IMG/VR virus record: IMGVR_UViG_3300014202_001065
Source: a virus
DNA length: 64,000 bases
Strand: one strand, 5' to 3'
Below, piece after piece: positions 73 through 64,000 of the stretch. The notes under the pieces were generated by a model. That model had not been told where the DNA came from, ran no database searches, and saw only the letters and a list, made by a program, of their open reading frames with translations. Positions within the stretch are counted from its first letter, which is position 1. Each line of letters opens with the position of its first letter. The position numbers and the translations under genes are program-made.

Positions 73-1169
73 GATAAACCTATGGCGTGAAGGTGCTTTT
101 TCAAGTGAGAGCCGATCCACCGCATAGCATAAACAGACATTGAGTTTCCAATCATTTTGTACCGAGCAGAATCAGACATAGGCTTTCCCTTGTGGGGCAC
201 CAGCGTGTGGTTATCAGGCATGCCCTGGAGCCGCTCACCTTCTATGGGTGTTATGCGCCGCACTCGGCCGTCAGGCATCACGACTAGGTCCGTGGCGTCT
301 TTGTAGTCACGGGCTTTAAGCGTCGAGGCTACTTGTCCGTCCCCGTACTGCCCAAAGCCGAGCATGTCAAAAGCGCGTGGCGTAGCTGGTCCGGGATGCT
401 CTGGCGGCCGGTATTCAGGCCCCGGTTCAGCAAACCTGCTGCACCCCGCGGGCTCAAATAAAACTTCGAGGGGATCGAATCCGTCTGCAGCACTTGCCAC
501 AACGAAGACCCTACGACGGCGTTGGGGGCTTCCGAAATATTTAGCATCGAGCACCCGCCACGCAAGGCTACGCTTTGGCCCAACAACATAACCAACGGTT
601 GGCCATCTGGGGTAGTGCTGTCCAGTGTCGTCATCCCAGCCCCAAAACTTACCGGTTTTTCCAATGATGGGTTTGTCATCGTTGGGGTATAACTCGTACC
701 CGCAGGTGAGGGCTCCGATGAAATTGCCGAAGGCATTATCCTTGGTGTTGAGGCATCCAACGACGTTCTCCCACCAGAGGGTACAAGGGGTTTTCCTATG
801 ATGATCAATTTCGTCACCTATTTCTACGAAGGTTTTTGTGAGTAGACCTCGTGGGTCCGCCAGTCCGCCACGCAGGCCGGCGATGCTGAAAGCCTGACAC
901 GGCGTTCCACCTACGAGAATATCAGGGGCCTCAATGGCTCCGGATCTAAGTAACCCAGGTATGGCCGTCATGTCGCCGAGATTGCGCACCTGAGGCCAGT
1001 GGTGAGCAAGCACGCTGCTAGGCTCATCGGCCATTTCACTGAACCATGCAGCCGTGTAACCCAGACCCTCACAGGCCAATGACATAGCCTCTACACCGGA
1101 GCAGACGCTGCCAAAGCGCAGACCATCGGCCGCGGGTGGGCGAGGGGTTTGATTTCCTATAGTAATCAT
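60..1169 (-). CDS. DNA (cytosine-5)-methyltransferase
   Basis: Motif I FGSVCSG, catalytic GGTPCQAFS, WENV, QRRRRVF and IGNS. Target specificity unknown. Confidence 0.95.
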   Translation of the reverse strand: MITIGNQTPRPPAADGLRFGSVCSGVEAMSLACEGLGYTAAWFSEMADEPSSVLAHHWPQVRNLGDMTAIPGLLRSGAIEAPDILVGGTPCQAFSIAGLRGGLADPRGLLTKTFVEIGDEIDHHRKTPCTLWWENVVGCLNTKDNAFGNFIGALTCGYELYPNDDKPIIGKTGKFWGWDDDTGQHYPRWPTVGYVVGPKRSLAWRVLDAKYFGSPQRRRRVFVVASAADGFDPLEVLFEPAGCSRFAEPGPEYRPPEHPGPATPRAFDMLGFGQYGDGQVASTLKARDYKDATDLVVMPDGRVRRITPIEGERLQGMPDNHTLVPHKGKPMSDSARYKMIGNSMSVYAMRWIGSHLKKHLHAIGLSCRS

Positions 1170-1179
1170 CAGTCCTCCG

Positions 1180-1509
1180 TCAGTACAGTTGGCGTGGTTT
1201 GCCAGCGTTCACCCAGAAGGCCTCAGCCATTTTAATGGCATCAGGGTCCTTGGGATCTTCAATATAAATCGGGACGCGGCAGCCATTCGACATAGCCACC
1301 ATGGTCAGCTCGAATGTCAACGGTGCGCAGGTCTGCCGCTTCAGGTAGGTATCTTCGCGCAATTTAGCACGGCTGGGGTATGGCTCCGACACGAAGCGCT
1401 GGATCTGCTTGGGCAAGCCACTCACGAAACAGCGCTTCACCCTTACCGTCTCGAGCTGACCCTTTACCGCCACCGGTAGCCAGACAAACTCGTCTTGATC
1501 TTGGATCAT
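1180..1509 (-). CDS. Hypothetical protein
   Basis: 109-aa ORF packed in the leftward operon, with a 4-nt overlap with the upstream gene. Confidence 0.7.
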   Translation of the reverse strand: MIQDQDEFVWLPVAVKGQLETVRVKRCFVSGLPKQIQRFVSEPYPSRAKLREDTYLKRQTCAPLTFELTMVAMSNGCRVPIYIEDPKDPDAIKMAEAFWVNAGKPRQLY

Positions 1510-1865
1510 TTGTAGATCTCCAGGGTTTTCAGCAGGGCCTCGTAGGCCTCACCCATGGCCCGCTCCATTTCCATTAGTTGGTGCACGTCGATGCGACGAG
1601 GGTCTGCCGCGGGGCGCAAATCGCAAAGGGTTTTGTGCACGGCGCCGCTATAGGCATGCAATGCCTCAGCGATGTCACCGGTGATATGGTCCTGTAGTTC
1701 GTCCATCACTATCGAGCGCAAGCTGCGATGGCCATCATCCCTACGATGTCTCAGAAACGCACGGTACTCGGCGCCCAGTGTGATAGAAACCCTACATGAA
1801 GATGTGCCATCGTCATGGTCTTCAACCTCGAATTTCAGGCTATCAATAGGTATTTTGTCACGCAT
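1506..1865 (-). CDS. Hypothetical protein
   Basis: Start moved to ATG 1865 (MRDKIP), which has SD GGAG upstream. Confidence 0.7.
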   Translation of the reverse strand: MRDKIPIDSLKFEVEDHDDGTSSCRVSITLGAEYRAFLRHRRDDGHRSLRSIVMDELQDHITGDIAEALHAYSGAVHKTLCDLRPAADPRRIDVHQLMEMERAMGEAYEALLKTLEIYK

Positions 1866-1932
1866 GGTGGTTCTCCAATAAAAAGCGGCCGGCCTGGGTA
1901 GCGACACACGGGGCCAGCCGCACAAAACGGGG

Positions 1933-9571: not shown

Positions 9572-9705
9572 ATGAAAAAAAAGCCGTAGCCCTTGTGGTG
9601 CAGCTTGAGCTGTACCGCAGGGCCAAAGCCGAGCAGGAGGCCAACGCTAAGCGGGAACGAGCACACCGCCGTATCCTTGAGCACGCCAAGAAGCTCGACT
9701 GGTAA
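9572..9705 (+). pseudogene. Small ORF (~43 aa, ends ILEHAKKLDW) interrupted at an A8 tract
   Basis: ATG AAA AAA AAG CCG TAG stops at once. The -1 frame continues AVALVVQLELYRRAKAEQEANAKRERAHRRILEHAKKLDW. Confidence 0.55.
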
Positions 9706-9882
9706 CAGAATCTCTACCAGCAGGAGGTGATCCAACCCACAAGTGCCCGGGTGTGTTGTCCCCCCAAGAGGCTCAGGTATCTCGGTACCGCCATCGTCAG
9801 GCGGCCGGCAACCAGAACCGTGATGGTCAAGGTAGCCCCATTTCAAGACCCCAGCGAGACCTTGATTACGCTGGGGTTTTTT
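9706..9882 (+). ncRNA. Candidate small RNA carrying a 16-nt complement of the 16S rRNA 3' end
   Basis: AGGAGGTGATCCAACC at 9722-9737, short hairpins (CCGCC/GGCGG) and a 3' terminator. Confidence 0.4.
9848..9882 (+). terminator. Rho-independent terminator
   Basis: ACCCCAGCG-N12-CGCTGGGGT followed by a T run. Confidence 0.7.
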
Positions 9883-9937
9883 ACGAGTATACTGGCAGCC
9901 TGTGTTTTCAATTCGCGGTGTGTGTGGGGGGGGTGTC

Positions 9938-10693
9938 ATGGGTGTTGGACCGGCTTACGGTGTTCCTAGCGGTGGTGGATCCGGTATTACGGACGGTGAC
10001 AAGGGTGATATAACCGTATCGGGTGGTGGCTCCTCGTGGACTCTCGATGATAAAACAGTAACTAATGCTAAATTGGCTGACGTCACAACAGGTGTGTTAA
10101 AGGGTCGCCATAGTGATGGGGCAGGGGCGGTGGAGGATCTCACGCCAGAGCAGGCAACCTCTATGTTGTTGACCTTCACAGATACATTGAAAGGGCTTAC
10201 GCCGCCACCCGTGGATGTGAGCGGGTTTTTTCTTCGTGATGATGGTTCGTGGGTGGATCCTATACCTGCATCAATAGATATTTGTCTTTCTGCCGTGGAT
10301 GCTACTGGACAGACTTTTACCTTTGCAGCCGCTACACCTCGACAACTTACCTTGTTAACAGAAGCAGTTAACCCCGGTTCGCATTATGACACTGCAACAG
10401 GCCGCTACACACCCACAAAGGCTGGTGTCTATGAAGTGAATGGTGTAATTCAAACCCCAACTGTTGCGTCTACAGGTATTGCCTTCATTTATAAAAACGG
10501 AGTATCTGTTGCGGGTGGTACATATATACCGGTTACGCCCACATCGGGTATGAGGGTGGGGGTCACCACGTTGGTTTATATGAATGGGACTACGGATTAC
10601 CTGGAATTGTGGGGTTATAGCTCTGGGGCTGGGACATCCGCCGCAGGTAATGGGGTCTACATTCAGTTTAATGCACGCTTAGTGTCTATATAA
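9938..10693 (+). CDS. Fibre-like protein with a C-terminal C1q-like domain
   Basis: GITDGDKGDITVSGG fibre-shaft motif; YDTATGRYTPTKAGVYEV...YMNGTTDYLELWGY C1q/TNF-like pattern; visibly lower GC. Confidence 0.7.
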   Translation: MGVGPAYGVPSGGGSGITDGDKGDITVSGGGSSWTLDDKTVTNAKLADVTTGVLKGRHSDGAGAVEDLTPEQATSMLLTFTDTLKGLTPPPVDVSGFFLRDDGSWVDPIPASIDICLSAVDATGQTFTFAAATPRQLTLLTEAVNPGSHYDTATGRYTPTKAGVYEVNGVIQTPTVASTGIAFIYKNGVSVAGGTYIPVTPTSGMRVGVTTLVYMNGTTDYLELWGYSSGAGTSAAGNGVYIQFNARLVSI

Positions 10694-10705
10694 GGATTTA
10701 GTCAT

Positions 10706-11337
10706 ATGGCTTATAAAAACCACCGCCTCGCCATTATGGTGGATCTTGATGGATCACTGTGTTGCGGTGCTCAGCGCCTGCACCTGATGCCCCCGCCGGA
10801 GAAACGGGGGACCCTTTGGCCTGGGAGCCATTCCATATGGCTTGCGGAGGCGACACCGAGATAAATGACGTCGCCCGCATGCTCCGCGCACTGCAAGCCG
10901 CCGGTTATCTGTTGGTCTTCATTTCCTACCGATCTGAGAGCACCCGAGCCCTTTCCAAGGCTTGGCTCTGGGATCACGGGTTTGAAGTCGCTGACCAGGA
11001 CTTGGTGCTGCGCCCAGGAGATCGGGGTCAGCCAGCCCATGAGTTCAAGCTGGAGAAGATACGGCAGCTGGAGCAGGAACGGGGCCTCAAGTTTATCTTC
11101 GCCATTGAGGATGACCTGCCGGTCTGCCAGCACCTGCGAGCTCATGACATCCCCTGCTATCAGGTACGGGACTGGAAGAACCCTATGCCCAGTGAGGCGG
11201 TTGAAATGCCCACCTACCACGCGGCGGATAGCGAGGCCCTGTCTAAGCTGGTGTCGTTGGCACAGAATGACTTGACAGAGGGCCGCGTGTTTACGGTCGA
11301 AGAGGCGAAGGATCGCCTGAAACAACGGCGTCAGTGA
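10706..11337 (+). pseudogene. HAD-family (PNK phosphatase-like) phosphatase with a -1 frame break at 10790-10810
   Basis: The ATG 10706 frame carries the DxD motif (VDLDGSLC). The rest (ISYRS, FAIEDD) is in the ORF-track frame starting 10759. Confidence 0.75.
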
Positions 11338-12325: not shown

Positions 12326-13477
12326 ATGACAGCGCAGAAAATGACTGACGATCAGTTGAAGCAGTGCATCTTGGATGGCATGACCACTGCCGCCATTGCC
12401 GGTCTTTTCAAGATGCACGAGCGGCGGGTGTGGGACAGACGAGCCATGCTGGCCAGGCAAGGTTGGTCGCCAGAGCACGGCCTGAAGGTCGAGTACCCTG
12501 ATGGGTTCAAGGTGGGGAAGACCACCATTCAGCGCGGCCCCGACGGCACCATTGAGCGCACCTGGGAACGGATGTGCGAAGACCCAGAGAAGTTGCAGGC
12601 CCTGATGCAGCGATCCATGCAAGCGATGGTAGAGGGTCTGCCTAAGTTCAAGGCCCAGCCTCTGGCCGCTCTTGAGGTGGACCACGACCTGCTGGCTGTC
12701 TACCCTCTGGGCGACCCTCACATCGGGATGATGAGTTGGGGGGCAGAAACGGGGCAGGATTGGGATCTCAAGATCGCCGAGCGCTACTTCTGCAAAGCCT
12801 TTGACCGCGTTGTCCGCACCACCCCCCACTGCAAGCAAGCCCTCATTCTGAATCTTGGCGACTTCTTCCACGCAGACAACATGGAAGGTGTCACCACCCG
12901 CAGCAAACACTCACTCGACGTTGACGGCCGCTATGCGAAGATGATCAGTGTCGGCGTCAAGATCATGCGCCAGATGATCGAGACTGCGCTAGAAGTACAC
13001 GATACCGTGCGGGTCATTAACTGCATTGGTAACCACGACGATACCGGTTCCCAGTTTCTGGCCGTGCTGCTGATGCACGTTTACGAGCTGGAGCCGCGGG
13101 TCATCATAGACGTCTCCCCCACACCGTTCCACTACATGCGTTGGGGCAAGGTCCTGCTGGGCGCCCACCATGGGCATACCTGCAAGGCACCCGGGTTGCC
13201 GGCCGTGATGGCTGCCTCTCGGCCAGAAGACTGGGGCGCCACCAATTATCGCTACTGGTACACCGGCCACATCCACCACGACACGCTGAAGGAATACCCA
13301 GGTGTGAAGGTGGAGAGCTTCCGCACCATGGCCGCAGCGGATGCTTACGCCACCTGGGGAGGCTACATTTCAGGGCAGGACATCAAGGCCATCGTCCTGC
13401 ACAAGAACAAGGGCGAGGTGGAGCGCCACACCGTCCATATCGACCACCTCCGGGATGCCAAGGGGTTGCACATATGA
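12326..13477 (+). CDS. Calcineurin-like metallophosphoesterase with an N-terminal HTH-like segment
   Basis: GDPHIG, GDFFH, GNHD, HHGH and GHIHH motifs. Confidence 0.9.
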   Translation: MTAQKMTDDQLKQCILDGMTTAAIAGLFKMHERRVWDRRAMLARQGWSPEHGLKVEYPDGFKVGKTTIQRGPDGTIERTWERMCEDPEKLQALMQRSMQAMVEGLPKFKAQPLAALEVDHDLLAVYPLGDPHIGMMSWGAETGQDWDLKIAERYFCKAFDRVVRTTPHCKQALILNLGDFFHADNMEGVTTRSKHSLDVDGRYAKMISVGVKIMRQMIETALEVHDTVRVINCIGNHDDTGSQFLAVLLMHVYELEPRVIIDVSPTPFHYMRWGKVLLGAHHGHTCKAPGLPAVMAASRPEDWGATNYRYWYTGHIHHDTLKEYPGVKVESFRTMAAADAYATWGGYISGQDIKAIVLHKNKGEVERHTVHIDHLRDAKGLHI

Positions 13478-13965: not shown

Positions 13966-13983
13966 AATACCTGCAGTGTGATC

Positions 13984-14009
13984 GGGGCCTCAGACTGGGG
14001 CCCTTTTTT
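13984..14009 (+). terminator. Rho-independent terminator
   Basis: GGGCCTC/GGGGCCC stem followed by T6. Confidence 0.6.
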
Positions 14010-14513: not shown

Positions 14514-14520
14514 GGTATCT

Positions 14521-20871: not shown

Positions 20872-21501
20872 ATGGCCCTTTATATTGGCAACCCCGACGA
20901 CTTGAAGACCACCAGTGATCGCCTCTCAGAGGCGATTGCTTTTGATTTCATTCATTGGTGGAGGATCCGGGATCGGGCCGTTGCCGTGATGGCACCGAAC
21001 ATTTACTTGCAGGATTGGTTCGAGGCTGATGTCTGCAGCATAAGGCGCAGCTTGCTCATTGACGAGTTTGAGATCAAGGTTTCCCGCGCAGACTTTAAGA
21101 ACGACGCGAAGAAGACTGGAGCCGATGGCCGCACCAAGTATGATCGGATCCTAACCAACGACCACCCTCTGGCCTCGTTCTCGTACATTGCCCCCAAGGG
21201 TTTGCTGGCTCTGGATGATTTGCCTGACTTTGCAGGACTGATCGAGGTTACCCTTCCACCACCCGGCGAGCCAAAGCGTAAATTGCTGCGAGATAGGCTA
21301 CCACCCACAGGTTTCAACCCACACGATTACGGCATTGCTACCTTCCAGGTCACAGTGCGAGCCCCAAAGCTGCGCAAGGTTTGCGATGAGGTGAGCAGAT
21401 CTACCGCCCAGCGTTTACATCTGTCCATGGCCTACCGCTACTTCGACTACTACCGGACCGGCGAATGTCTGAAGAAGAAAAAGCCGAGGTACCCAGAATG
21501 A
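20872..21501 (+). CDS. MmcB-like PD-(D/E)xK nuclease-fold protein
   Basis: EADVCSI...EFEIKVSRADFKND...FSYIAP. Confidence 0.75.
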   Translation: MALYIGNPDDLKTTSDRLSEAIAFDFIHWWRIRDRAVAVMAPNIYLQDWFEADVCSIRRSLLIDEFEIKVSRADFKNDAKKTGADGRTKYDRILTNDHPLASFSYIAPKGLLALDDLPDFAGLIEVTLPPPGEPKRKLLRDRLPPTGFNPHDYGIATFQVTVRAPKLRKVCDEVSRSTAQRLHLSMAYRYFDYYRTGECLKKKKPRYPE

Positions 21502-23873: not shown

Positions 23874-24149
23874 ATGGATATTTGCTCGAGTGGCGACGTG
23901 CTGGGCGTTGCGGGTTTCTGGGCCTTGGGCGTCGCGCTGGGGGCCATCGTGCTGGCAGCCCTACTTGACCTGCTGGCTCCGCCGTACATAAAGGCCCGCC
24001 GAGGCGTTCGCCTTGTTGGCTTGATCGTCTGTGCAGGTGTCCTGGCTTTCATGGGCTCGTACCTGTGGCTGCAGGTCTATGCCATTCAGTTCAACCCCAC
24101 CCTCAGCCGCTGGATCGACGAGTTTACAGTGAGGTTGCTATGTTCATAA
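23874..24149 (+). CDS. Membrane protein (2 TM)
   Basis: SD GGGAG; two hydrophobic helices. Confidence 0.7.
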   Translation: MDICSSGDVLGVAGFWALGVALGAIVLAALLDLLAPPYIKARRGVRLVGLIVCAGVLAFMGSYLWLQVYAIQFNPTLSRWIDEFTVRLLCS

Positions 24150-24844
24150 TTGGCGGCGGTGGCCGAAACAACAACCCTTTTGCCAAGTCTGCCGGGATCA
24201 CAATTGGCAAAAAGCCTGAGCCTGTGCCAGCCACCATACCGATGTTTGAGATTGGCCGGCCTGCTGCCTCCGTCAGTGACGAGGCCACCTACGTAGAGCC
24301 AGAGCCGGCACCGTTGGAGGTTTGCGATCCCGTCTCACAGGTCAGGGCCTTCGTGCATGAGTACCCTTTCTTCGGTGGGTCTGATGTGGCCCTCACCTTC
24401 GAGCCCTACGACAGCTACACGGTTACAGATCGGCAGGTGGTCAACGGTAAACAGGTTGTCACTGAAACAACCTACCAGAAGATGGCGGCCTCTCTGCCGC
24501 GCACCGTGCCGTTTGAGGGTATCGATGATCGGATCTGGCTGCGGGCGGTCTACACCACCGACAGTTGCCACACCCAGCGAATAGAGGTGCGCCTTGGCGA
24601 CGAAATCCTGGGGCTGCTCTGCATGTTTGCCCGATACAATTGGTCCATCTATGTGGCCCGACCTGGGTTGCGTGACGGCATGCCCCTGTATGAGTCAGGT
24701 GCCAAAACCCGTGGCTGGGTCTTCGACCGGCGTGCGGCAGGCGTGGCCCGGGAAAACATCCTGGATCCGCTGGAGCCGTGGTATGTTCTGCCAGACATGC
24801 TGCGCTACCTGAAAACCCATCGGCCCGAGCTGGGCTTGAAATAA
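24140..24844 (+). CDS. Hypothetical protein with a disordered N-terminus
   Basis: ATG 24140 (MFIIGGGG) with SD GAGG. Confidence 0.75.
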   Translation: MFIIGGGGRNNNPFAKSAGITIGKKPEPVPATIPMFEIGRPAASVSDEATYVEPEPAPLEVCDPVSQVRAFVHEYPFFGGSDVALTFEPYDSYTVTDRQVVNGKQVVTETTYQKMAASLPRTVPFEGIDDRIWLRAVYTTDSCHTQRIEVRLGDEILGLLCMFARYNWSIYVARPGLRDGMPLYESGAKTRGWVFDRRAAGVARENILDPLEPWYVLPDMLRYLKTHRPELGLK

Positions 24845-25450: not shown

Positions 25451-26452
25451 ATGAGTAACGGTATCACCTCCCTGAAGTTGTCCTTCGAGTTCAACCCCGA
25501 GTCTGGCCTGCAGCCTCTCGGCTTGTCCGTCCCCGACCCCGGTGTACTGCTGGCCATGGGCAATGCCTATGGTGCCATCTGCCAGGCAGCCGGTGCTGGC
25601 CAGGATTATACCGCGAGCCCGCTGGCGCAACCGCTGTACGACGCTATCCTGCTGGCCGTAGCCTCGGCCATGGGTGAAGGCGGCATGCAATTCATCAATA
25701 TCCACGACGCAGCTAATGGTCACATCCAGCAGCTGCAGGGTCAGATCCAGTCAGCGACAGCCGAGCTCCAGCAACTGCAAGCCAGCTTTGAGCAGGCATG
25801 CCAAAATGCCGCTCAGGATGGCTACGCCCAGGGTCTGGCCGCGGGCCAGCAGGTGGCTGCGAATACCCCAACTGGCGGCAATTCCGCGGCCACCGGGGGC
25901 TTCCTGCTGAATATCGACACCAAGGTACTGGCTGAACAGATCGCCAGCTACTTGTCCAACGATAAGCCGGCAGTGCAAGTAACCAACAACGTGGCTGGTG
26001 CAAACCCCGCCGGCGGCATGACCCTCGGTGCCGGTGGTCTGAACCTGGGCAACGGCGTACAGCTGGGAAAGCCTAAAGCAGCACAGGGCTCAGATGCACA
26101 GCCTGTGACTGCTACTGGTGCGAAGAACGCGGAATATGATCTCGACCCGGCCACCATCGGCGGCGGAATTGGATCGGGTGGCGGCCTGACCAACACGTCG
26201 AAAGCCGGTGAAGGTAAAACCGTGAAGGGTATCCGCGGTGACAGCTCGTTGGAGAAGATCGGTTTGCCGACTGCGAAGAAAAAGTTCGCTGGGGGGGCGG
26301 TAGTCTACATCGTGCCCTCGAGTGACAATGCCCAATGGGACGATCGCGCACCGGTAGTGGCTGATCCGAAGGAGGGTGGCAATCTGGAGGAGATCGCCGA
26401 AGGGGCGAAGACCATCCTGATGAAATCCTTGCACTACTACTCTGAAGTCTGA
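25451..26452 (+). CDS. Hypothetical protein with a Gln-rich coiled coil and a Gly-rich low-complexity region
   Basis: 333-aa ORF with strong phage-like codon use. Confidence 0.8.
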   Translation: MSNGITSLKLSFEFNPESGLQPLGLSVPDPGVLLAMGNAYGAICQAAGAGQDYTASPLAQPLYDAILLAVASAMGEGGMQFINIHDAANGHIQQLQGQIQSATAELQQLQASFEQACQNAAQDGYAQGLAAGQQVAANTPTGGNSAATGGFLLNIDTKVLAEQIASYLSNDKPAVQVTNNVAGANPAGGMTLGAGGLNLGNGVQLGKPKAAQGSDAQPVTATGAKNAEYDLDPATIGGGIGSGGGLTNTSKAGEGKTVKGIRGDSSLEKIGLPTAKKKFAGGAVVYIVPSSDNAQWDDRAPVVADPKEGGNLEEIAEGAKTILMKSLHYYSEV

Positions 26453-32346: not shown

Positions 32347-35148
32347 ATGCTGACAATCGGCGGGGTGGTCCTCACCCCTAAACCGGTTTTCCGTGGATTG
32401 ACCATAGGAGCGCCGAGCGCCCAGGCAACCACGTCACCGGTAGTTTTTCCCCAGGCAGCACCCGCAGCCCCAGTGGAGAAAAAGAAACGGGCCCCCGCTA
32501 AACCGAAGGAGCCAAAGGTCGAGGTTTATACGGGCCTGCCCCTCCTGACCGAGGATGTGAACGATCCAACCAAGGTCATGGCACCCACGTTCCCTGATCC
32601 ACCTGTGGCGCCACCGCCCCCACGCATTTACCTGCCGCACAATAACCGGTTGCTAATTATCACTGATAGTCGGGTCAATGAGATCCAGGATACGATCGGA
32701 CCGATCATGGCACCGGCGATCCAACAAGGTCTTGGTTACCAGGTGGCCCACATTGACGCAGCGGGAACAAAACCTCTGCCGGGTTTCTACCCAGGGGACA
32801 CCATTTTGCTTATGGGTAAAACGGCCTACGAGCGGGTCGCTGCCGAGTGGGGGGCCTTGTCAAAGGGGAAATCTGTATCCTTCTACAGACACACGGAGAA
32901 CGCCTTCAATGGGGCCATCATCCTGACTACCCACTCGGCGTGGACGGCAACGAAGGAGTACAACAAGCTTATCGATGTGCAGCTGGACACCCAATCTGCT
33001 ATCCGGCGGGCGATGACCGGCACCATTGCCCCGTTGACTGGAATGGGCAACTACTACTGGGTAGACACCTTTGAGCCGCTCTGCCATATGATTCAGAACG
33101 AGCACGCCCGCACAGGGCAACCCGTGCGGTTGAGTTGGGACTTGGAGTGCACAGGCCTTGACGAGCATGACCCCAAGGCCTGGATCGTTTCAATTTTCTT
33201 CTCGTTCAGACCCGGAGAGTCGTTCGGCATGGCTTTCAAATGGCATCTGGACCAGCCTGTTCGGGCTGACAAGGCTATGTTCCATGGCTGCAATTCAGCG
33301 GCATGGGACGCCAAGGTAGCTGTCTGGGAACAGATAAACTGGTTGCTCAACAGCGAAATAATTTATGGCGTCGGGGCTAACTTGAAGTTCGACAAGCGCT
33401 GGATCTCGAAGAAATGGGATATGGAGTGCACGAACCACAAGTTCGATACCACCCTGGTTGGCGGCCTCTTGAATGAGAACGTCTCCAACTCACTGAACAA
33501 CCACTGCAAGATCTACGCACCAGAGCTGGGTGGTTACGACGACTACCTCAACACCACCGAGGATAAAGGCCGGATGGATCTGGCCCTGGCCAAGGACCCT
33601 GAGGGTTTCAAGGTTTATGCCGGGGGTGATACAGACGCCTGCCGCCGGATCTATGAACCCCTGCGAGAGCGCTTACTTGGGCAACCAGCCGTGGCCAACT
33701 TATACATCAACCTGCTGCACCCTGCGTCTGATTTCTTTTGCAGGCTGGAACAGGTGGGGGTGCTCGTGGACAACGAGGCCTATGCCGAGCTGGAAGCAGA
33801 ATTGCGCTCTGAACTGAAGCGTCTGCAGGATGAGGCGGACGCTATGTTTCCGGGGCGGCTCCGCGCCAAGCACAAGATGGATACCAGCCTCACCAAGGCT
33901 GCAGTGATCTCAGACTACATGTTCTCCGAGCTGGGCCTGCGTCTGAAGCCCCTGGAGTTCACAGCCAAGTCTAAGAATACCGCGGTACCCAAGCCCAGCA
34001 CGGAGTATACCCATCTGGCCAAATTCAGGAATAACCCTGAGGTTAAGAAGTTCCTTGACATCTACAAGGCCTACAACTCAGCGTCCAAAACCCTGAGCAC
34101 CTACGTGGTAGGGTTTCTCAAACACCTGCGGCCGGATAACCGCTACCACGCTACCTACTTGCTGCACAAGGCCGATAAGGGGGGAGACACCGGGGAGCAG
34201 GGCGGTGGCACTGTTACTGGGCGACTGGCTTGTACTGGCCCCGCCATGCAGACCATACCCAGTAAGACATTTTGGGCCAAGAAGCTCCGCAAATGCTTCA
34301 AGGCACCAGAGGGCTTCAAGGTAGTAGAGATCGACTACTCCCAGGGCGAGCTGAGGGTGGCAGCAGTTGTGGCCGGCGTGCGGGCAATGATCGACGCCTA
34401 CAACCGAGACGATGACCTCCACGTCATGGCTGGTGCTCTGGCTTGCGGTATGGACCCGGCCACGGTGCTCAGTTGGAAGGACAGCCCGGACCCAGCGCTG
34501 CAGGCCCGCTACAAATTCGTGCGCCAGAATGGCAAGGCCGCGAACTTCGGCCTCCTGTACGCAATGCAGGCCGAAGGCTACATGAACTACGCCCGCGACA
34601 CCTACGGCGTGGACATGACCCTAGACGAGGCGGTTTTCGCCCGCAATGCGTTCTTCGAGCTGTACCCCGAGTTGTTGGAGTGGCACGACGATTACAAGCG
34701 CCGAGCTGCGCGGGATGGCTACATCATTTCCCCACTGGGTCGTGTTCGCCACCTGCCCTACATCAATTCAAGAGACAACAGCCTGCGGTCACAGGCCGAG
34801 CGCCAAGCTATCAACTCACCTATCCAGTCCACGCTGTCAGATATGACCGTGCTGTCGGGCGTGGAGTTCGAGCGAAACTACGGCCGGTTTGGGCGTGACA
34901 ACCCAGTGCAGTTCATGCAGATGGTTCACGATGCCCTTTACTGCTACATCCCAGAGGACGACATCGATATCTGGGTGCCGCGCATTATGGATGTGATGGA
35001 GAATCTGCCGCTGGCCGAGAAATTTGGTTGGTACAACATCCCGCTGAAGTTCAAAGTGGAGCCTGAAGCAGGCGACAACCTGGCCAGTAAAACTGTTCTG
35101 CACTGGTCAGATGAACACATAGCCAAGGTACTGGGCAGAGCAGCTTAA
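32347..35148 (+). CDS. polA: Family A DNA polymerase with a 3'-5' exonuclease and an N-terminal UDG-like region
   Basis: Exo WDLECTG, NLKFD, YAGGDTD; polymerase TGRL, DYSQGELR, KAANFGLLY and MVHDAL. Confidence 0.95.
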   Translation: MLTIGGVVLTPKPVFRGLTIGAPSAQATTSPVVFPQAAPAAPVEKKKRAPAKPKEPKVEVYTGLPLLTEDVNDPTKVMAPTFPDPPVAPPPPRIYLPHNNRLLIITDSRVNEIQDTIGPIMAPAIQQGLGYQVAHIDAAGTKPLPGFYPGDTILLMGKTAYERVAAEWGALSKGKSVSFYRHTENAFNGAIILTTHSAWTATKEYNKLIDVQLDTQSAIRRAMTGTIAPLTGMGNYYWVDTFEPLCHMIQNEHARTGQPVRLSWDLECTGLDEHDPKAWIVSIFFSFRPGESFGMAFKWHLDQPVRADKAMFHGCNSAAWDAKVAVWEQINWLLNSEIIYGVGANLKFDKRWISKKWDMECTNHKFDTTLVGGLLNENVSNSLNNHCKIYAPELGGYDDYLNTTEDKGRMDLALAKDPEGFKVYAGGDTDACRRIYEPLRERLLGQPAVANLYINLLHPASDFFCRLEQVGVLVDNEAYAELEAELRSELKRLQDEADAMFPGRLRAKHKMDTSLTKAAVISDYMFSELGLRLKPLEFTAKSKNTAVPKPSTEYTHLAKFRNNPEVKKFLDIYKAYNSASKTLSTYVVGFLKHLRPDNRYHATYLLHKADKGGDTGEQGGGTVTGRLACTGPAMQTIPSKTFWAKKLRKCFKAPEGFKVVEIDYSQGELRVAAVVAGVRAMIDAYNRDDDLHVMAGALACGMDPATVLSWKDSPDPALQARYKFVRQNGKAANFGLLYAMQAEGYMNYARDTYGVDMTLDEAVFARNAFFELYPELLEWHDDYKRRAARDGYIISPLGRVRHLPYINSRDNSLRSQAERQAINSPIQSTLSDMTVLSGVEFERNYGRFGRDNPVQFMQMVHDALYCYIPEDDIDIWVPRIMDVMENLPLAEKFGWYNIPLKFKVEPEAGDNLASKTVLHWSDEHIAKVLGRAA

Positions 35149-41098: not shown

Positions 41099-41467
41099 AT
41101 GGCAAAAGCACCCGCAGCAAAAAACGCCGTTCGCCTCTGGCTGGTTGGTAAAAACTCCTACAAACTTCTGGGTACCACTATCCCCCAGGTTAAGCGTGGT
41201 GGGAGTGCGTCCTTCCCGGCTGAAAAAGCCGCCCAGCTTCTGAAGCAGTACGGCACAATCATGCGTAATGGCACTGTGGTCAGCGTACCCGCTTTCGTTG
41301 ACAGTGCTCAGCTGGCCTCGGGCTTCCTGGGCTACGATGTGGACAAGGCTACCGTGACTACCACCCTGGGTGGAGAGCCCGCAACTGATCTGGGCTCGGA
41401 GCCGGATCATGTGGAGATCACCACCCCGCAGAACGCGCAACAACAGGGCGGCATGAACATAGGCTAA
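41099..41467 (+). CDS. Hypothetical head-associated protein
   Basis: Between the capsid and head-tail genes; SD GAAGGA. Confidence 0.75.
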   Translation: MAKAPAAKNAVRLWLVGKNSYKLLGTTIPQVKRGGSASFPAEKAAQLLKQYGTIMRNGTVVSVPAFVDSAQLASGFLGYDVDKATVTTTLGGEPATDLGSEPDHVEITTPQNAQQQGGMNIG

Positions 41468-56518: not shown

Positions 56519-57706
56519 ATGATTACTCTGCCCGATGCCCTGGTTGCCCGCATCCCCGTCATCCGGATCCAGGATAATGATCCAATGAACATGAACACCT
56601 TGCTGCAGAACTTGAAGGGCCCCTGCAAATTTGCCAACATCCATGACCTTGAGGCCACAGGCTTCGATGATAATTTCATGCGTGGGTTGCAGGGCTCCAG
56701 CCTGATTGTTGTTCGTGGCGAAGTCAGCGTGACTGGTGCTATTTACAACAAGATGCGGCTGGCCAGTAGCTGCCTGGTACTGCTGGGTGAAGGTGACAGA
56801 TCCCCGCTGATTTTCGAGTGTGGGTCCTACTACCCCACGCCGACTGACATTGCGCAGGCTATACACATAGGGGTCGGTGTGCCCGTACCCATAGCCAACT
56901 TCGCAGCCAACTCCCTGCGCGGTTTGACCTGTTTGCAGGCTGAACAGATCTGCCGCCTCAGTTTGGCCAAGGCCGGTGCGCAGCCATTGACTCATGAACT
57001 GCTGACAGCTGTCCGCGCAGAGGTGCTCGGATCCATTGACGGTGTTGAGGTGATGATCCGTAAAGCCGGCTTTTACAGGCCTGACCCTGGTTTGACTGAT
57101 TGGTTGAACTGGGCCTCTCGCGCACAAGCCAACGCCCGATATTACAACCTGCGACCCAGGGGCCTGCTCCTGCATGGAAAACCTGGAACCGGCAAGACCG
57201 AGGCAGCCAACTACGTAGCCAACTGCCTTAACATGCCGCTGGTGCGCCTCAATCTGCCGGCCATGTTGAACAAATGGTTGGGGGAGGCCGAGCGATCTCT
57301 GACCAATGCCTTGGCCTCAGTGGAAACGCTGGCGCCCTGCGTGATGCTTCTGGATGAGGCTGACAAGGTGATCACCACTGCGTCGGGGTCAGGGGAGGAG
57401 ACTTCTCGCCGGATGCTCAGCAAGCTGCTTTGGTGGCTGTCAAACCACCAGGCCCCCGTGCTGACGGTGATGACGGCCAACGACCTGCAGCATTTCCCAG
57501 TGGAGCTTCACCGCGACGGGCGCCTTGATGCCACCGTTGAAGTGAAGGAGCTGCAGACCCCGGTAGAATTGGACGCTTTTGTGGATGGCGTAAAGAGCTG
57601 CTATCAGGGTACCATGGGTCTACCCCCTATCGATTTCGGCAAGGCACCGTACAACCAAGCACGGGTGACCAGGTTGATCGAAAGGGCCATCATTCTCCAG
57701 AATTGA
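56519..57706 (+). CDS. AAA+ ATPase
   Basis: ATG 56519; HGKPGTGKT, VMLLDEADK, MTAN and RDGRLD. Confidence 0.9.
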   Translation: MITLPDALVARIPVIRIQDNDPMNMNTLLQNLKGPCKFANIHDLEATGFDDNFMRGLQGSSLIVVRGEVSVTGAIYNKMRLASSCLVLLGEGDRSPLIFECGSYYPTPTDIAQAIHIGVGVPVPIANFAANSLRGLTCLQAEQICRLSLAKAGAQPLTHELLTAVRAEVLGSIDGVEVMIRKAGFYRPDPGLTDWLNWASRAQANARYYNLRPRGLLLHGKPGTGKTEAANYVANCLNMPLVRLNLPAMLNKWLGEAERSLTNALASVETLAPCVMLLDEADKVITTASGSGEETSRRMLSKLLWWLSNHQAPVLTVMTANDLQHFPVELHRDGRLDATVEVKELQTPVELDAFVDGVKSCYQGTMGLPPIDFGKAPYNQARVTRLIERAIILQN

Positions 57707-58442: not shown

Positions 58443-58520
58443 AACAAGAGACAGTGCAACAAGACCAAACGAAAATAACACAGCCGACAAGACAAAGGCA
58501 ACAAGACAATGAGCAAGACA
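58443..58520 (+). repeat. Five CAAGA(C/G)-core direct repeats around the rep start
   Basis: Cores at 58445, 58460, 58488, 58502 and 58514. Confidence 0.65.
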
Positions 58521-59849
58521 CCGACTCAGCAGAGTAAGCTGGTCATGCCCTTCGGTTTAATGTATGGGCGTGACATTACCGACGCCCAAAAAGTCACAGC
58601 CATGTGGCTCATTTCTTATGCTACACGCAGCGCTCTCAACCTCTGCTGGGCATCCAACGAAACACTGGGCGCCGTCGCAGGTAAAAGTCCTCGCCAAATC
58701 CGCCGCGATATCCGCAATCTGATCACGCAAGGGTACTTCACAGAGGTATCAGCCCCCATTGAACGGCAAAATGACTTGAAGATGTTTCCCTCGGCACGGT
58801 ACATCCGGCCAAATAAGAAAGTATTCGAGGTGCCCCAAATGCTGAGTGACACTATGCAAAAGACAGAAGAGCTGTCCCTGAAATGTCCAGGGGGGGAGGA
58901 CATGGATGTCCATCTATATAAAAACAAGAATAACAGTAGTAAACACCTAAACACTAAAACACTAGCGTTGCCTTCGGCCGCCGGTTTTGTCAGCTATGGG
59001 CGGAAGGTGATCGGTTTTGAGATCGGGGTCACAACTGGTTTCGTGTGGGCTGATAATATCTGGTTTGAGATTGGCCGGCCGATGCCCCCCCACACGAAAG
59101 AGAATGAGATCCGGCCCGAGCCGACCGAGGCCGCGCCGCCGGCACCCGCCGCGCTCTGCGCCGCCCGGCCGACAGTAGATCTTCATCAAGTACGAATGCT
59201 GGGCCTGAGCCCACGGGTAGAAGGTATGGTGATGCGCTTCCTCGCCGCCGGGGTTGCGCCAAGAGCCATAATCGTAAAAGGTAGTGTCGTCACCGTAGTG
59301 GAGGACCCCATGACAGATAAACGCAAGATCCCGACCAACTGCTCTTTGGACGAGTTGCTCCAGCGCTCCGCCGCCGGCCAGTTGCACCGTCAGGCTCCTG
59401 CCAAAGAGACGGGCTCGGTAACCACCATGCGGATGTCCGAGGCCCTCCGGGCAGCGGCCGCACCCGTCAAGTTCATTGCCAGCCACACGATGCGGGAGCT
59501 CGGCCAGCTCAAGACGTTCGCCAAGGTGGTGCGCCAAGCAGGGGATGACCCTCTGGATGTACTCAAAGTGGTGGCCAACGACTGGGCCGGCTTTCGCAAC
59601 TACATTGCCACCCAGGGCAAGCGCCCACCAAAGGAGGTGGTGGCTGATCCTGGTGTGGTGTGTTATCTGGCCGCCGAGTGTGTAAACTATGCCAGAGCAG
59701 CGCGGGGTGCCCCTGCATATCAACAGCAAGGCCCCTCAACCGCCGCAGGTGCGATTGGGCAACCTGCATCCGCGCCAACGGGTGTGGTTAGTGACCAGGA
59801 CTTTCTGGCGCAGGTACAGGCAGCCCTCAACAAGACCAGCCAGAGTTGA
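58509..59849 (+). CDS. Replication initiator-like protein (N-terminal HTH)
   Basis: CWASNETLGAVAGKSPRQIRRDIRNL HTH; upstream of loader, helicase and primase genes. Confidence 0.7.
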   Translation: MSKTPTQQSKLVMPFGLMYGRDITDAQKVTAMWLISYATRSALNLCWASNETLGAVAGKSPRQIRRDIRNLITQGYFTEVSAPIERQNDLKMFPSARYIRPNKKVFEVPQMLSDTMQKTEELSLKCPGGEDMDVHLYKNKNNSSKHLNTKTLALPSAAGFVSYGRKVIGFEIGVTTGFVWADNIWFEIGRPMPPHTKENEIRPEPTEAAPPAPAALCAARPTVDLHQVRMLGLSPRVEGMVMRFLAAGVAPRAIIVKGSVVTVVEDPMTDKRKIPTNCSLDELLQRSAAGQLHRQAPAKETGSVTTMRMSEALRAAAAPVKFIASHTMRELGQLKTFAKVVRQAGDDPLDVLKVVANDWAGFRNYIATQGKRPPKEVVADPGVVCYLAAECVNYARAARGAPAYQQQGPSTAAGAIGQPASAPTGVVSDQDFLAQVQAALNKTSQS

Positions 59850-59923: not shown

Positions 59924-60466
59924 ATGAATAACGCCCAGCTTGGCTGCCTCGATAAGGAGTACCATGCCCGGCTCATAGAAATGCTCTATGACGTGTCCAG
60001 GCAAGCCCACATCAAGACCGAGTACATCACAACCTCTGCGGCCAACTGGTGTACCGAAGCTGAAATGGCGTGGCTTCAGTCGTTTCATATGGACACGCTG
60101 AGCAAGAGCGGGTTGGTGGTGGTTAATCGCCGCAACTCTATCAATGCCATGTCAGCAATGGTAGGTGCCCTGATCCGCAATTATATTGACGCTCGCGTCA
60201 TCATGACCCACGAGCTGATCGATATGGAGCCTCGTGAGATCACGGCCATTGCAGTACCTAATTTCTACCTGCATTCCATTAACGCGGGTAGCGTGGCAAA
60301 GTGGGAGGCCCCCATGATCCTGGAGTGGTTGTGGGCTAGATACTCAGCGGGAAAAAAGAACATTCTTTTCGTAGAGAACTTGGCGTCTATGCGGACTGAG
60401 TACGGTACCGCCATTTCCGATTTTCTCCATGAGAACTACATCATCCTTGGGGGCACCCCGTCATGA
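59924..60466 (+). CDS. Degenerate DnaC-like helicase loader
   Basis: Position before DnaB; fold-like pattern but no Walker A (inference). Confidence 0.55.
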   Translation: MNNAQLGCLDKEYHARLIEMLYDVSRQAHIKTEYITTSAANWCTEAEMAWLQSFHMDTLSKSGLVVVNRRNSINAMSAMVGALIRNYIDARVIMTHELIDMEPREITAIAVPNFYLHSINAGSVAKWEAPMILEWLWARYSAGKKNILFVENLASMRTEYGTAISDFLHENYIILGGTPS

Positions 60467-61857
60467 GTGAATTACCGTTTGGGAAAATGCCACAGGGTCA
60501 AGCGCAAAGTTCGGGGGGTCTGGTACTGGGCGCTCCGATGACTGCGCCCCCACCGCCGCAAGGCAGCTCCAATGCATTCTTGGGTAATATTTGTGATCTT
60601 CTGATCGCCTCGCTTATCGCGCAAGGCAGTACGGGGAAGATGATGGAGCTGGCCCTGAGAGACGACATATTCACTGAGCCGGAGCGACCTTACTACCAGG
60701 CCCTGGTGGGGTTTGTCCGCAGGCATGGGACGATGCCCAGCCGCGAGACCTACATAGCCGAAGTGCGCCACCCGAACCTGCCTTTTGCGCCGGAGCCACC
60801 AAGCTTCTATGCAGAGAAGCTGCGTGACAGGTTCATCCGTGATGGTGCAACGCAGAGCCTCTTACAGCTGTCGAACCAGATAAAAACCGGGGCAAGTGCA
60901 TCCAAGGCGCTAGAAGCAGCGCTGCAGGGTCTGTTGCGAATCAAGCAGGGTGCTGTGACTCATGGGCTTTACGATGCGCGGGAAATGGCGAGCCGGGTAA
61001 TCCCAACCTACCAGCACAACCTGATGCACGCAGACGAGACGGCGGTACACCTGGGCTGGGATTATACCGATCGGATCAGTGCCGGTATCGTGCCAGGGGA
61101 TATCCTGTCGTGGATTGGTCGGCCAGCCACCGGCAAGACGTGGCTCAATCTGCAGTCCGCCATTTACCCATGGCTGCACCAGCACAAGCGGACAATGTTC
61201 GTTACCACCGAAATGCTGCGGGGGCCGATAGAGGAACGCGTGGCGTCAATGGTATCGAGACTGCCGATCAGGGGGATCCATAAATCGAGCCTGTCATCCC
61301 CACAGTTCAAGGTACTCAAGGATCGCCTATATGAGATCTCGACCCATGACGCCCCGCTATGGGTGGTGGATGCCAACCTTGGAGCCACTGTCCAAGACCT
61401 CTGGGCTCTATGCTCCATGCTGGGTGTAGAGTGGTTGGTTATCGACGGGGCCTACCTGCTGACGCATCCAGACAAGCGAATGGACCGCTACACCCGGGTG
61501 GCGGAGAACTGCCGACTCCTGAAGTCCGAAATTGCGACCGGTCTCCGCATACCTCTGGCAGCCAGCTGGCAGTTCTCACGGGAAATGTCGAAGAAGAAAA
61601 ATGCCAAGGGTAAGAAGAACGGCGATGAGAAACCGGGGCTGGAAGACATTGGCTACTCGGATGAGATAGGCCAGATCAGCTCGCTGGTGCTGGCCACCTT
61701 GGAGGCGGAAAGTATCGAGACCCAAAACCGCCGCCGCATCGACGTCATGAAGGGTCGAAATGGGGAGACGGGTGGCTTCTTCATCAACTGGGATTTCAAC
61801 AACATGGACTTCAGTGAACATGTCCAATTGACTCACGAAGCCCTGCGCTTTATCTGA
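60463..61857 (+). CDS. dnaB: Replicative DNA helicase (DnaB/SF4)
   Basis: GRPATGKT, TTEM, VIDGAYL, QFSR, YSDEIGQ and KGRNGE. Confidence 0.92.
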   Translation: MSELPFGKMPQGQAQSSGGLVLGAPMTAPPPPQGSSNAFLGNICDLLIASLIAQGSTGKMMELALRDDIFTEPERPYYQALVGFVRRHGTMPSRETYIAEVRHPNLPFAPEPPSFYAEKLRDRFIRDGATQSLLQLSNQIKTGASASKALEAALQGLLRIKQGAVTHGLYDAREMASRVIPTYQHNLMHADETAVHLGWDYTDRISAGIVPGDILSWIGRPATGKTWLNLQSAIYPWLHQHKRTMFVTTEMLRGPIEERVASMVSRLPIRGIHKSSLSSPQFKVLKDRLYEISTHDAPLWVVDANLGATVQDLWALCSMLGVEWLVIDGAYLLTHPDKRMDRYTRVAENCRLLKSEIATGLRIPLAASWQFSREMSKKKNAKGKKNGDEKPGLEDIGYSDEIGQISSLVLATLEAESIETQNRRRIDVMKGRNGETGGFFINWDFNNMDFSEHVQLTHEALRFI

Positions 61858-61891: not shown

Positions 61892-62410
61892 ATGATGATT
61901 GGCGGCGTGCAGCTCCAGCCCCCGGGCGCAGCTGTGACAACAACGGTGGCCCAGGCCACACAAACACCAGCAGTAAAATCCAAGGTTGATAACCTGGTAG
62001 AGAGCATTGGTGGCGTAAAAGCCATAGAGGAAATGGCCCGCCTGATGGTAGAAGTGGCCAATGCTGAGCTGGCACTGAAGAAAAAGAAAAAGCTGTACGA
62101 GGCCTTTACAGCCAACACGCTGAGTAAGGCCGCAGAGCTGGGCATCGCAGAAGATACCGTGCTCAATGGCGAGAGCCATGCTCTGGTGCTGAAATACAAA
62201 TCGGGGAACACCACTACCGAAGTGGAGGACAAAACCAAGCTCTACAACTTCATGGAGAGTAAGGCCCCGGGTATGTTCTTCCAGCTCTGCAAGATCGGGG
62301 TTGGCGATCTCAAGGAATACATACCTGAGACAGCCTACTCGTCAGCAGGCATAAAGAAGGGCAACGCACCGTCCAGCCTTGGGCTTAGCGCCAAAGTGAT
62401 CAAGGCGTAG
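61892..62410 (+). CDS. Hypothetical protein of the replication module
   Basis: ATG 61892 with SD AAGGAG. Confidence 0.8.
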   Translation: MMIGGVQLQPPGAAVTTTVAQATQTPAVKSKVDNLVESIGGVKAIEEMARLMVEVANAELALKKKKKLYEAFTANTLSKAAELGIAEDTVLNGESHALVLKYKSGNTTTEVEDKTKLYNFMESKAPGMFFQLCKIGVGDLKEYIPETAYSSAGIKKGNAPSSLGLSAKVIKA

Positions 62411-62412
62411 CC

Positions 62413-63528
62413 ATGCGGGCACAGCAACTACAACAGGTCTGCGCTGCGCTAGGGGTTCGCCCTGGACGTGCTGCAAAGGACTGGTTACCAGTGCCGTGCC
62501 CGCTATCGCCCTGGACGCATAGCGGTGGACCCAACTCTGATAATGCCAAAGGGTTGAAGGCTGCCGGGGGCCTGTCGATCAGCGCCTACGGTAAGTCCAA
62601 GTTCATGTGTCGGGTTTGCCAGCACACGCCTATTAATTTATGGGAGCTGCACCAGCGGCTGGAATACCATCTGGCCGCCCAGTCTATGCCAAGGAACGTC
62701 AATCTGCCCATGCTGAGGGCCTTGACCATCCAGGAGGCAGAGAACGTCTATGACGATCTGGAGGTGGCGGCCTATGACCTGCAGGGTAAAAACCCCGATG
62801 GCAGCGATGCTGATTTTCACGGCGAGATCCGAACCAAGGAGTGGCCAGAGGAATTCCTCTTGAATTTCGTCCCAGTGACGGAGAACGACGAGGCCCACAG
62901 GTACTGTGCTGTTCGAGGGATACCCGACGTGGTGCTCGACTACCTGGGTATGGTCTGGGATCCCAAGCGCCGGAGAGTAGCATTCCCCATCCGTGACGAA
63001 AATTGGGCATTGGTTGGGTTGCATGGGCGCCTAATAGACGACTACTACCCACTAAGACCAGAGTGGGAGGGCCACCCTGATCCAGAAATGCTGCTGAATC
63101 AGAATCCGGATTGCATTATGCAACCGGAGCGGGAACCGCCCCTGCGCTACTTCGCTTATGAGTGCGAAGGGGTGAGGAATTCCCACATTTGGTGTAACCA
63201 GCATCTGATCGATATGTCACAGCCAGTGATCATTACGGAGGGAAACTTCGACTACGCCAAGATTATGGCTGCTGGTTACTACAACGTGCTGGGGAGCCGG
63301 TCAGCGGGGATCCACGGAACGATGATGCTTTATCTGTCTAAGGCCCAGGATATCATCACTTACTATGATAGGGGGGTCGGCGGGGATACAGCGAGAGCTC
63401 GGGTTGATAGCTACTTCAAGGGAACGGGTCGAAGGGTGCGCCACTGCATACCCTCTGAGCTGGATGATGATGCAGGCAATACGCCGGTCTGCGTCATCCA
63501 GGATAATCTCGGCAGATTTATAATTTGA
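62413..63528 (+). CDS. DNA primase (Zn-binding domain plus TOPRIM)
   Basis: CPLSPWTH...CRVC, RRRVAFPI, ITEGNFD and YYDRGVGGD. Confidence 0.88.
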   Translation: MRAQQLQQVCAALGVRPGRAAKDWLPVPCPLSPWTHSGGPNSDNAKGLKAAGGLSISAYGKSKFMCRVCQHTPINLWELHQRLEYHLAAQSMPRNVNLPMLRALTIQEAENVYDDLEVAAYDLQGKNPDGSDADFHGEIRTKEWPEEFLLNFVPVTENDEAHRYCAVRGIPDVVLDYLGMVWDPKRRRVAFPIRDENWALVGLHGRLIDDYYPLRPEWEGHPDPEMLLNQNPDCIMQPEREPPLRYFAYECEGVRNSHIWCNQHLIDMSQPVIITEGNFDYAKIMAAGYYNVLGSRSAGIHGTMMLYLSKAQDIITYYDRGVGGDTARARVDSYFKGTGRRVRHCIPSELDDDAGNTPVCVIQDNLGRFII

Positions 63529-63580
63529 TACGTGTCACACTTTTGGGTATGGTACTCATTCCCTACAGGAGATCATTTGT

Positions 63581-64000
63581 ATGAACAATATGCAACAAGG
63601 CGGATTTCAAATTGGCGGGCAACAGCCTCAACCACAAGGAGCGGGCGGCATGCCATGGGGCAACCAGCCAGTGGCTCACCCTGGTCAGCAACAACAGCAG
63701 CAATACATCCCGCAAGGGCAGCCCCCCGCGCAATTTGGGGCACCACAAGGACAACAACCGGCAGGGCCTGTATACCAACAACAGGTGCAACAGCCTCAGC
63801 CACAACAAGGCTTTCAGGCGCAGATGCATCAACAGGGCCCAGCTAACGCCATGATCCCGCAGAACAACCCGGCCCAGCCTGGCCGTATGCTGACAGGAGC
63901 CGCAGCCGCTGCGGCCATGGCTGCCAAGCCGAACGGCTCCAACGACGAGTACAGCTTCAGCCTGAAACCCGGAGAAATGAAGACCATCACCTTCCTGGAT
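63581..64000 (+). CDS. Probable ssDNA-binding protein with a Q/G/P-rich N-terminal region (partial)
   Basis: Manual translation from ATG 63581 (SD AGGAG) is open to the window end and finishes FSLKPGEMKTITFLD. Absent from the ORF track because it has no stop. Confidence 0.7.
   Translation, partial: MNNMQQGGFQIGGQQPQPQGAGGMPWGNQPVAHPGQQQQQQYIPQGQPPAQFGAPQGQQPAGPVYQQQVQQPQPQQGFQAQMHQQGPANAMIPQNNPAQPGRMLTGAAAAAAMAAKPNGSNDEYSFSLKPGEMKTITFLD

Follow-up and report, generated by a model that had tools for sequence, protein, structure and literature searches.

A short peptide recurs at the chain ends and in the flexible linkers of otherwise unrelated proteins encoded by a phage genome, of which 64 kb (the whole stretch of DNA analysed, hereafter ‘the window’) were taken out of the 82,147-bp IMG/VR record IMGVR_UViG_3300014202_001065, itself ~90% complete. 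The peptide has the form [Gly or initiator Met]-hydrophobic-x-[Ile/Leu]-Gly, lies at a chain end or within a linker rich in Pro, Gln and Gly, and is, on comparative sequence grounds, well supported as a putative short linear docking tag. A plausible, though far from assured, reading is that the tag draws the phage's DNA-handling proteins to one phage-encoded partner, the candidate being an SSB (a binding protein for single-stranded DNA, ssDNA) of the gp32 type, bound to ssDNA.

A tag defined by its placement

All 15 peptides listed in a preliminary description of this DNA are present at their coordinates and in frame (15/15), in real genes with Shine-Dalgarno sites. Gene identities here and below come from PHROG, Pfam and fold searches. 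The carriers detected within the window are the following.

1152..1169, minus strand: MITIGN at the N-terminus of the C5 DNA methyltransferase, with a GGAGG ribosome-binding site, then a Pro-rich linker
20872..20892, plus strand: MALYIGN at the N-terminus of a 209-residue protein with a weak DNA-repair-protein match
24140..24262, plus strand: MFIIGG, GITIGKKP and MFEIGRP in the N-terminal tail of gp24140
26012..26074, plus strand: GGMTLG, GGLNLG and VQLGKP in the Gly-rich linker of gp25451
32347..32415, plus strand: MLTIGG and GLTIGAP, opening a ~100-residue N-terminal extension of the family A DNA polymerase
41438..41464, plus strand: C-terminal GGMNIG-stop of gp41099 (122 residues), encoded downstream of the major capsid gene
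59013..59081, plus strand: FEIG, twice, in the linker joining the domains of the replication initiator (Rep)
60514..60537, plus strand: GGLVLGAP in the N-terminal tail of the DnaB-like helicase
61892..61921, plus strand: MMIGG at the N-terminus of gp61892 (172 residues), encoded between helicase and primase
63599-63619, plus strand: GGFQIGG of the SSB (core motif at residues 9-12), ahead of a ~100-residue Q/P/G-rich region

Beyond the end of the window, the same record encodes a tagged RecA/UvsX-like recombinase (MDIGN), a RuvC-like resolvase (MLTIGN), a second resolvase (FLIG), a phrog_17202 protein (MTMNIGN) and a 224-residue protein with three tag copies. The carriers were said to be enriched in proteins of DNA metabolism, and this holds: 9/13 carriers act on DNA, compared with 7/89 other proteins (Fisher P ~1e-5 to 3e-6, with annotation incomplete).

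What sets the tag apart is its placement and not the bare frequency of the pattern. Over the whole proteome, the loose pattern [LIMFVW]-x-[IL]-G showed no enrichment (87 observed, 79.4 +/- 8.2 expected, P = 0.2). At protein starts, the anchored pattern ^M-x(0-4)-I-G-[G/N] was found in 5 proteins against 0.22 expected (Poisson P = 3.6e-6) when the unbiased starts of the longest open reading frames were used, and in 8 proteins against ~0.2 expected (P = 2e-10) when starts had been checked for a ribosome-binding site. The proposal that the tag belongs to disordered tails and linkers was likewise upheld, disorder-like segments containing 19 copies compared with 10.0 +/- 3.2 after each segment had been shuffled locally (P = 0.007); local shuffling retains the composition of the segment and so provides a composition-matched control. 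One further candidate, MAIGTG at the beginning of the major tail protein (43009), is absent from orthologues and was set aside as a chance match.

Shine-Dalgarno sites support the starts at MITIGN, MLTIGG, MFIIGG (24140) and MMIGG (61892). The longest open reading frame of gp24140, a protein for which no family was found, opens with a GTG at 24065; a GAGG ribosome-binding site and the starts of orthologues (MFIIGG, MLIGK) put its true start at 24140.

The Ile and Gly codons vary among tag copies, so the likeness between copies is one of peptides and not of DNA. A cause at the nucleotide level, such as a shared initiation cassette or recent duplication, was rejected given these differing codons and the unrelated upstream regions.

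Conservation in close orthologues

Orthologues at 57–75% identity retain the tag although the surrounding linkers have diverged, a check on the preliminary description that held for the polymerase, gp24140, gp25451, gp41099, the helicase, gp61892 and the recombinase. The polymerase gives the clearest picture of the pattern: three orthologues (64–75% identity) each carry two N-terminal tags (MILG...LVLG, MIIG...LVIG and MQIG...LSIG), the linker between the two has diverged and altered in length, and across residues 1–41 no column is invariant except Met1, Gly5 and Gly21. Polymerases at <=48% identity are without the ~100-residue N-terminal extension. Orthologues of gp24140, on syntenic contigs, have three copies in relative L005 and two in L006; those of gp25451 have two copies each (GGLVLG/VALG and GGVTLG/LNLG); and those of gp41099 end in MQIG-stop and LNIG-stop, such that the C-terminal copy is conserved in three genomes. 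In relative L008 the helicase and the gp61892 orthologue each open with MQIGN, a further small protein carries MIDIGN, and a frameshifted recombinase is preceded by GLVIGG. Conservation of the two FEIG copies in Rep is only partial.

The SSB and recombinase genes of L008 (a JGI contig; 9622-11083 and 13464-14663) are each split by a frameshift, most likely through assembly errors, and the GLVIGG tag and the body of the recombinase lie in different frames.

Two other elements are conserved in the polymerase extension, within residues 42–70 (window 32470-32560): a basic patch, KKRAxAKPKEP, and a Y-x-G-L-P-L-L-T stretch which in one orthologue reads Q-L-Q-L-P-L, matching the hexameric beta-clamp pattern Q-phi-x-[LM]-x-[FL]. 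To judge from this match, the second element may be a separate host-clamp motif.

Lineage-specific versions across the phage family

The tag is not confined to this genome and its close relatives. In Vibrio phage SIO-2 the helicase bears MIKIGNK, the SSB orthologue MGVNIGVKKP, the gp61892 orthologue MGLNISLGG and a further protein MAINIGKPKP...ITLGA; analysed alone, the SIO-2 tag is not statistically significant, and the value of these data rests on the orthology of the proteins with the carriers described above. Stenotrophomonas phage Summit shows MGVKMGD, MGVKMGK, MGVKLPGAKP (recombinase) and MGVSWLK (SSB), and Rhizobium phage TM16 shows MAFILKSPAK, MAITFSKSKK, MAKLVFKPKG and MGNIGK...MSFLKK. 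In L017, an uncultured relative, the SSB carries MAIVVKKPIAAK and the gp61892-like protein MAVVIKKPIAPK; another uncultured version pairs MAVSFATKPKK with MPVVLKTKAK. Across lineages the common core is hydrophobic-x-hydrophobic at residues 1–5, with Gly, Lys or Pro next. Unrelated proteins within one genome share the exact form, which differs between genomes. Among eight lineages examined, the SSB is the only protein tagged in all (8/8), and the gp61892-like protein is tagged in seven (7/8).

The within-genome likeness could be measured for this pair. Over the first 15 residues, SSBs and gp61892-like proteins were more alike within than across genomes (seven genomes, exhaustive permutation, P = 0.0145), and the adjoining linker, used as a control at residues 17–31 and 32–46, showed no such effect (P = 0.44 and 0.89); the likeness is therefore not due to composition. 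Nor is it due to a recent copy of the DNA, since the most similar pair matches at 31/48 coding bases and only 12/40 upstream bases. Drift in step within genomes points, as far as sequences can tell, to a receptor co-evolving with the phage, and argues against a conserved host pocket. The preliminary description had proposed a phage-specific docking motif for a common hub: ‘docking motif’ is well supported by conservation, by placement at chain ends, by enrichment on proteins of DNA metabolism, by lineage-specific versions on the same orthologues and by likeness within genomes, but ‘phage-specific’ must give way, the motif being family-wide.

SIO-2 (NC_016567.1) also has a RecA-like gene at 48447-49411 that is unannotated, lies within an annotation gap of ~1 kb and is frameshifted in the deposited sequence.

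The gp32-type SSB as candidate receptor

The kinship of the SSB to gp32 is seen, largely through structural models, by fold and a conserved Cys/His pattern only. Its core comprises residues 112–330, with a template-modelling (TM) score of 0.63 to a PF08804 cluster in the Atlas. The top five PDB matches of an AlphaFold2 model (mean predicted local distance difference test score, pLDDT, 70.7) were all T4 or RB69 gp32 cores (probability 1.0, TM ~0.5), and the Cys/His pattern conserved in orthologues is consistent with the gp32 zinc site. The Pfam gp32 model PF08804 gave no match to the SSB at E <= 1, and a sequence-level search of the PDB gave none either. Scans for SSB relatives yielded five viral and two metagenome loci, one of the latter repeating a viral locus, and with so few relatives the alignment is shallow and the model only moderate.

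On either side of the core lie disordered, Q/G/P-rich regions, of ~100 residues at the N-terminus and ~150 at the C-terminus. Residues 352–416 (L004:327-521, minus strand, just past the window) consist of about seven tandem octapeptide repeats of the PNFGAPAQ type, and the 150-residue C-terminal tail holds ~13 hydrophobic-Gly dipeptides; in L008 the SSB tails have Tyr-based (GGY/NGY) repeats in place of the PNFGAPAQ type.

The C-termini of SSB orthologues (L004, L008, L011, L012, L015, L016, L017 and P0111) all read [D/E/N/Q]-x-[L/I]-stop, examples being GQL, QHL, EEL, DLL, EQI, NQL and NEL. From this shared ending, the tip may be a second partner-binding site.

Binding by T4 gp32 is cooperative because each molecule's N-terminal domain docks onto its neighbour's core (PMC12893549). 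By analogy, the N-terminal tag of the SSB described here would be its own cooperativity peptide, and the tags of the polymerase, helicase, gp61892-like protein, recombinase, resolvases and methylase would be copies of it, allowing these clients to insert into SSB-coated DNA or to cap SSB filaments. That the SSB is the receptor, its clients mimicking its N-terminal cooperativity peptide, is our best guess, prompted by the gp32 fold, the presence of the tag on the SSB in 8/8 lineages, the T4 precedent, and the Lys-Lys versions of the tag that resemble MFKRKS of T4. In the clade of the present phage the tag would have spread to more proteins and become set in long low-complexity tails, possibly adding multivalent, condensate-like behaviour. 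The fuller proposal, in which the SSB has lent its cooperativity peptide to a dozen DNA enzymes (the pocket on the SSB and the tags on clients), perhaps with extension to a multivalent, SSB-scaffolded compartment, is possible but rather doubtful.

Among the known systems compared, the N-domain of T4 gp32 comes closest to the tag in sequence, yet the comparison runs both ways. In both cases a short N-terminal peptide belongs to an SSB of gp32 fold, and the hydrophobic-plus-Lys-Lys versions of distant relatives (MSFLKKG, AIVVKKP) are those that recall T4 MFKRKS. However, the LAST motif of T4 gp32 is (Lys/Arg)3(Ser/Thr)2, compared with GGFQIGGQQP here, and only in distant relatives do two lysines follow the hydrophobic part; the tag is also shared by a dozen further proteins, a distribution not described for T4, and its docking is a prediction.

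Several points weigh against the SSB as the partner. The SSB is a candidate receptor by analogy. The T4 N-domain motif is basic (KRKST), whereas the tag of this clade is hydrophobic-Gly and often without basic residues. In known SSB hubs the wiring is reversed: the SSB supplies a single tail and the clients the pockets. A clear action on ssDNA is not evident for every carrier, since gp41099 is encoded among the head genes and both gp25451 and gp24140 are so far without a role. The within-genome likeness is drawn from seven genomes and one protein pair, and the failure of the Pfam gp32 model to find the SSB leaves kinship by fold alone.

A known SSB hub is that of E. coli, whose SSB ends in an acidic tip, MDFDDDIPF, and has a disordered, Gly-rich linker in which GGXXGGG motifs drive condensation (PMC7584906, PMC12143593). 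The putative hub described here is alike in that the SSB would be a platform for replication and repair proteins, has Q/G/P-rich disorder, and bears a tag resembling GG-x-x-G-G-G. It differs in that E. coli has the peptide on its SSB, with pockets on clients, whereas here clients and SSB alike bear the peptide, and in that the present SSB adopts the fold of T4 gp32 and is tagged at its N-terminus.

Alternative explanations

The most serious alternative is that the tags are multivalent stickers and not ligands of one pocket, adhering to one another and to the hydrophobic-Gly units of the SSB tails. The SSB would then scaffold a replication condensate, with proteins bearing one to three tags as clients. 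The SSB tails, with their PNFGAPAQ-type repeats (about seven) and hydrophobic-Gly units (~13), suit such a scaffold; hydrophobic or aromatic residues are spaced within a Gly/Gln/Pro-rich disordered context, as in sticker-spacer systems; three proteins have three tag copies each; and tags often read GG-x-x-[IL]-G-G, resembling the condensation motifs of the E. coli SSB linker (PMC12143593; PMC7584906). Yet more distant relatives have kept the N-terminal tags with SSBs that have no long low-complexity tails, and L008 has kept its IG tags even though its SSB tails are Tyr-based, which a discrete tag fits better than a generic sticker. Most clients, moreover, have a single copy, and its strict position at residue 1 suits a defined site better. 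We consider stickers an unlikely explanation.

Docking on a host hub (the beta sliding clamp, host SSB or a chaperone) is improbable. The convergence of many tails on one pocket is the logic of the sliding clamp, and no recognisable clamp is encoded by the phage: PF02916 and PF00712 gave no match at E <= 1 in the 82-kb record, although that record is ~90% complete and a very divergent clamp could escape such a search. The E. coli SSB linker contains GGNIGGG, to which the tags are similar, and this too speaks for a host hub. The residue numbering of that stretch agrees with PMC12143593. As in the clients of sliding clamps (bacterial motif, PIP box and T4 gp45-binding tails), unrelated DNA enzymes share one short terminal peptide on a flexible tail, in multiple copies, with both chain ends used. 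The bacterial beta-clamp-binding motif, however, is Q-phi-x-[LM]-[FL] or Q-phi-x-[LM]-x-[FL], and replacement of its Phe with Gly is reported to weaken binding (PMC11139829). Neither the Gln nor the closing Phe/Leu anchor is found in the tag: most copies have Gly or the initiator Met before the hydrophobic position, and where the anchor is due there is an invariant Gly (then G, N, A or K), at which the chain of gp41099 ends. The tag was accordingly rejected as a canonical beta-clamp motif; since the defining features of both fail, it fits, as a sequence, neither that motif nor the LAST motif. Drift of the tag between lineages, in step within each genome, would also be unexpected were the pocket a conserved one of the host.

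The possibility that a 231-residue protein, whose gene follows that of the AAA ATPase, is a T4-like clamp in disguise was rejected: it has no family and no Atlas match, only close homologues, it is poorly conserved relative to its TM16 counterpart, and no SIO-2 gene is annotated at that position.

Alternatively, the tag could be a recognition or engagement signal for a Cdc48-like AAA+ unfoldase that remodels, recycles or clears tagged proteins, which we regard as quite improbable. The phage encodes such an enzyme, whose model (pLDDT 92.6) aligns over its full length with the tandem D1-D2 rings of Cdc48/p97/Drg1, D1 being degenerate and D2 active. It is conserved across the whole phage family, and has the conserved aromatic pore loop K-Y-x-G-E-S-E and Walker A and B motifs that a cognate unfoldase would have. 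Enzymes of this kind engage short tags on flexible N- or C-terminal chain ends, which is where these tags sit, and known AAA+ degrons (ssrA, N-terminal ClpX motifs) are likewise short hydrophobic signals at accessible ends, here with an AAA+ machine encoded nearby. Against this, the tag has no sequence likeness to known degrons, and a role in unfolding or turnover is only putative; the ATPase model shows no adaptor or tag-binding domain; the ATPase is tied to the carriers by co-occurrence alone, as are many other genes; and Gly/Pro/Gln-rich tracts are poorly gripped by pore loops.

The ATPase probably starts at 56519 and not 56480, orthologues aligning from residue 14–20. In several lineages it is adjoined downstream by a fast-evolving gene of 200–246 residues without known family, which is not annotated in SIO-2.

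It is less probable again that the tag is read by another phage protein, for example the core of the RecA-like recombinase or the DnaB-like helicase. Both are tagged at their own N-termini, as an oligomerisation peptide would be; Rad51, by analogy, reads FxxA/BRC peptides, and tandem tag copies recall BRC repeats. The tags of these two proteins, however, are absent in several lineages (recombinase in L015, L016, L017 and SIO-2; helicase in Summit, TM16 and L015–L017) while those of the SSB and gp61892-like protein persist.

Finally, that the tag is a functionless by-product of low-complexity composition is very hard to credit: the loose pattern is unenriched proteome-wide and at least one apparent copy, at the tail protein start, is due to chance, but against it stand the strict N-terminal enrichment, the local-shuffle test, the glycines that stay invariant where linkers have diverged, and a C-terminal copy conserved in three genomes.

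Genome context

The nearest cultured relatives of the phage are SIO-2-like Vibrio siphoviruses, Stenotrophomonas Delepquintavirus, and Rhizobium and Rhodobacter phages, at a polymerase identity of ~40%; a first scan of viral contigs based on the polymerase found no relatives. The main genes and modules of the window are as follows.

60-1169, minus strand: C5 DNA methyltransferase (phrog_116; domain begins at residue 15)
32347-35148, plus strand: family A DNA polymerase
35224-55861: head and tail modules
56519-57706, plus strand: Cdc48-like AAA ATPase
58509-59849, plus strand: Rep
60463-61857, plus strand: DnaB-like helicase
62413-63528: primase
from 63581, continuing beyond the end of the window, plus strand: the SSB, 471 residues

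Genes of nucleotide metabolism are also encoded in the window. Past its end lie a second helicase, the RecA/UvsX-like recombinase, the two resolvases and an exonuclease.

A 924-residue protein (window 26893-29667) has an additional N-terminal PhoH-like ATPase part at residues 103–425; its orthologues in close relatives are 610–617 residues long, and the SIO-2 orthologue aligns only with residues 414–923.

Significance

Hub-and-tag wiring, in the form of the PIP box, the clamp-binding motif or the SSB tip, is how cellular replisomes exchange partners, and to our knowledge it has not been described for most phages outside T4 and T7. New to us are this N-terminal form of the tag, hydrophobic-x-Ile-Gly, and the possibility that it arose from the N-terminus of an SSB; literature searches found no description of the motif, from which its absence is not proven. 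A compact and easily mutated tag would mark the members of one network, among them four proteins of unknown function (gp24140, gp25451, gp41099 and gp61892), and the tagged DNA methylase hints at methylation coupled to replication. The system is also present in cultured phages (Vibrio phage SIO-2 and its relatives, and Stenotrophomonas phage Summit), where it is directly testable. Were the gp32-type SSB the reader of the tag, this would be a new way of building an SSB hub; were it the Cdc48-like ATPase, the carriers would be the first substrates for a widespread phage enzyme.

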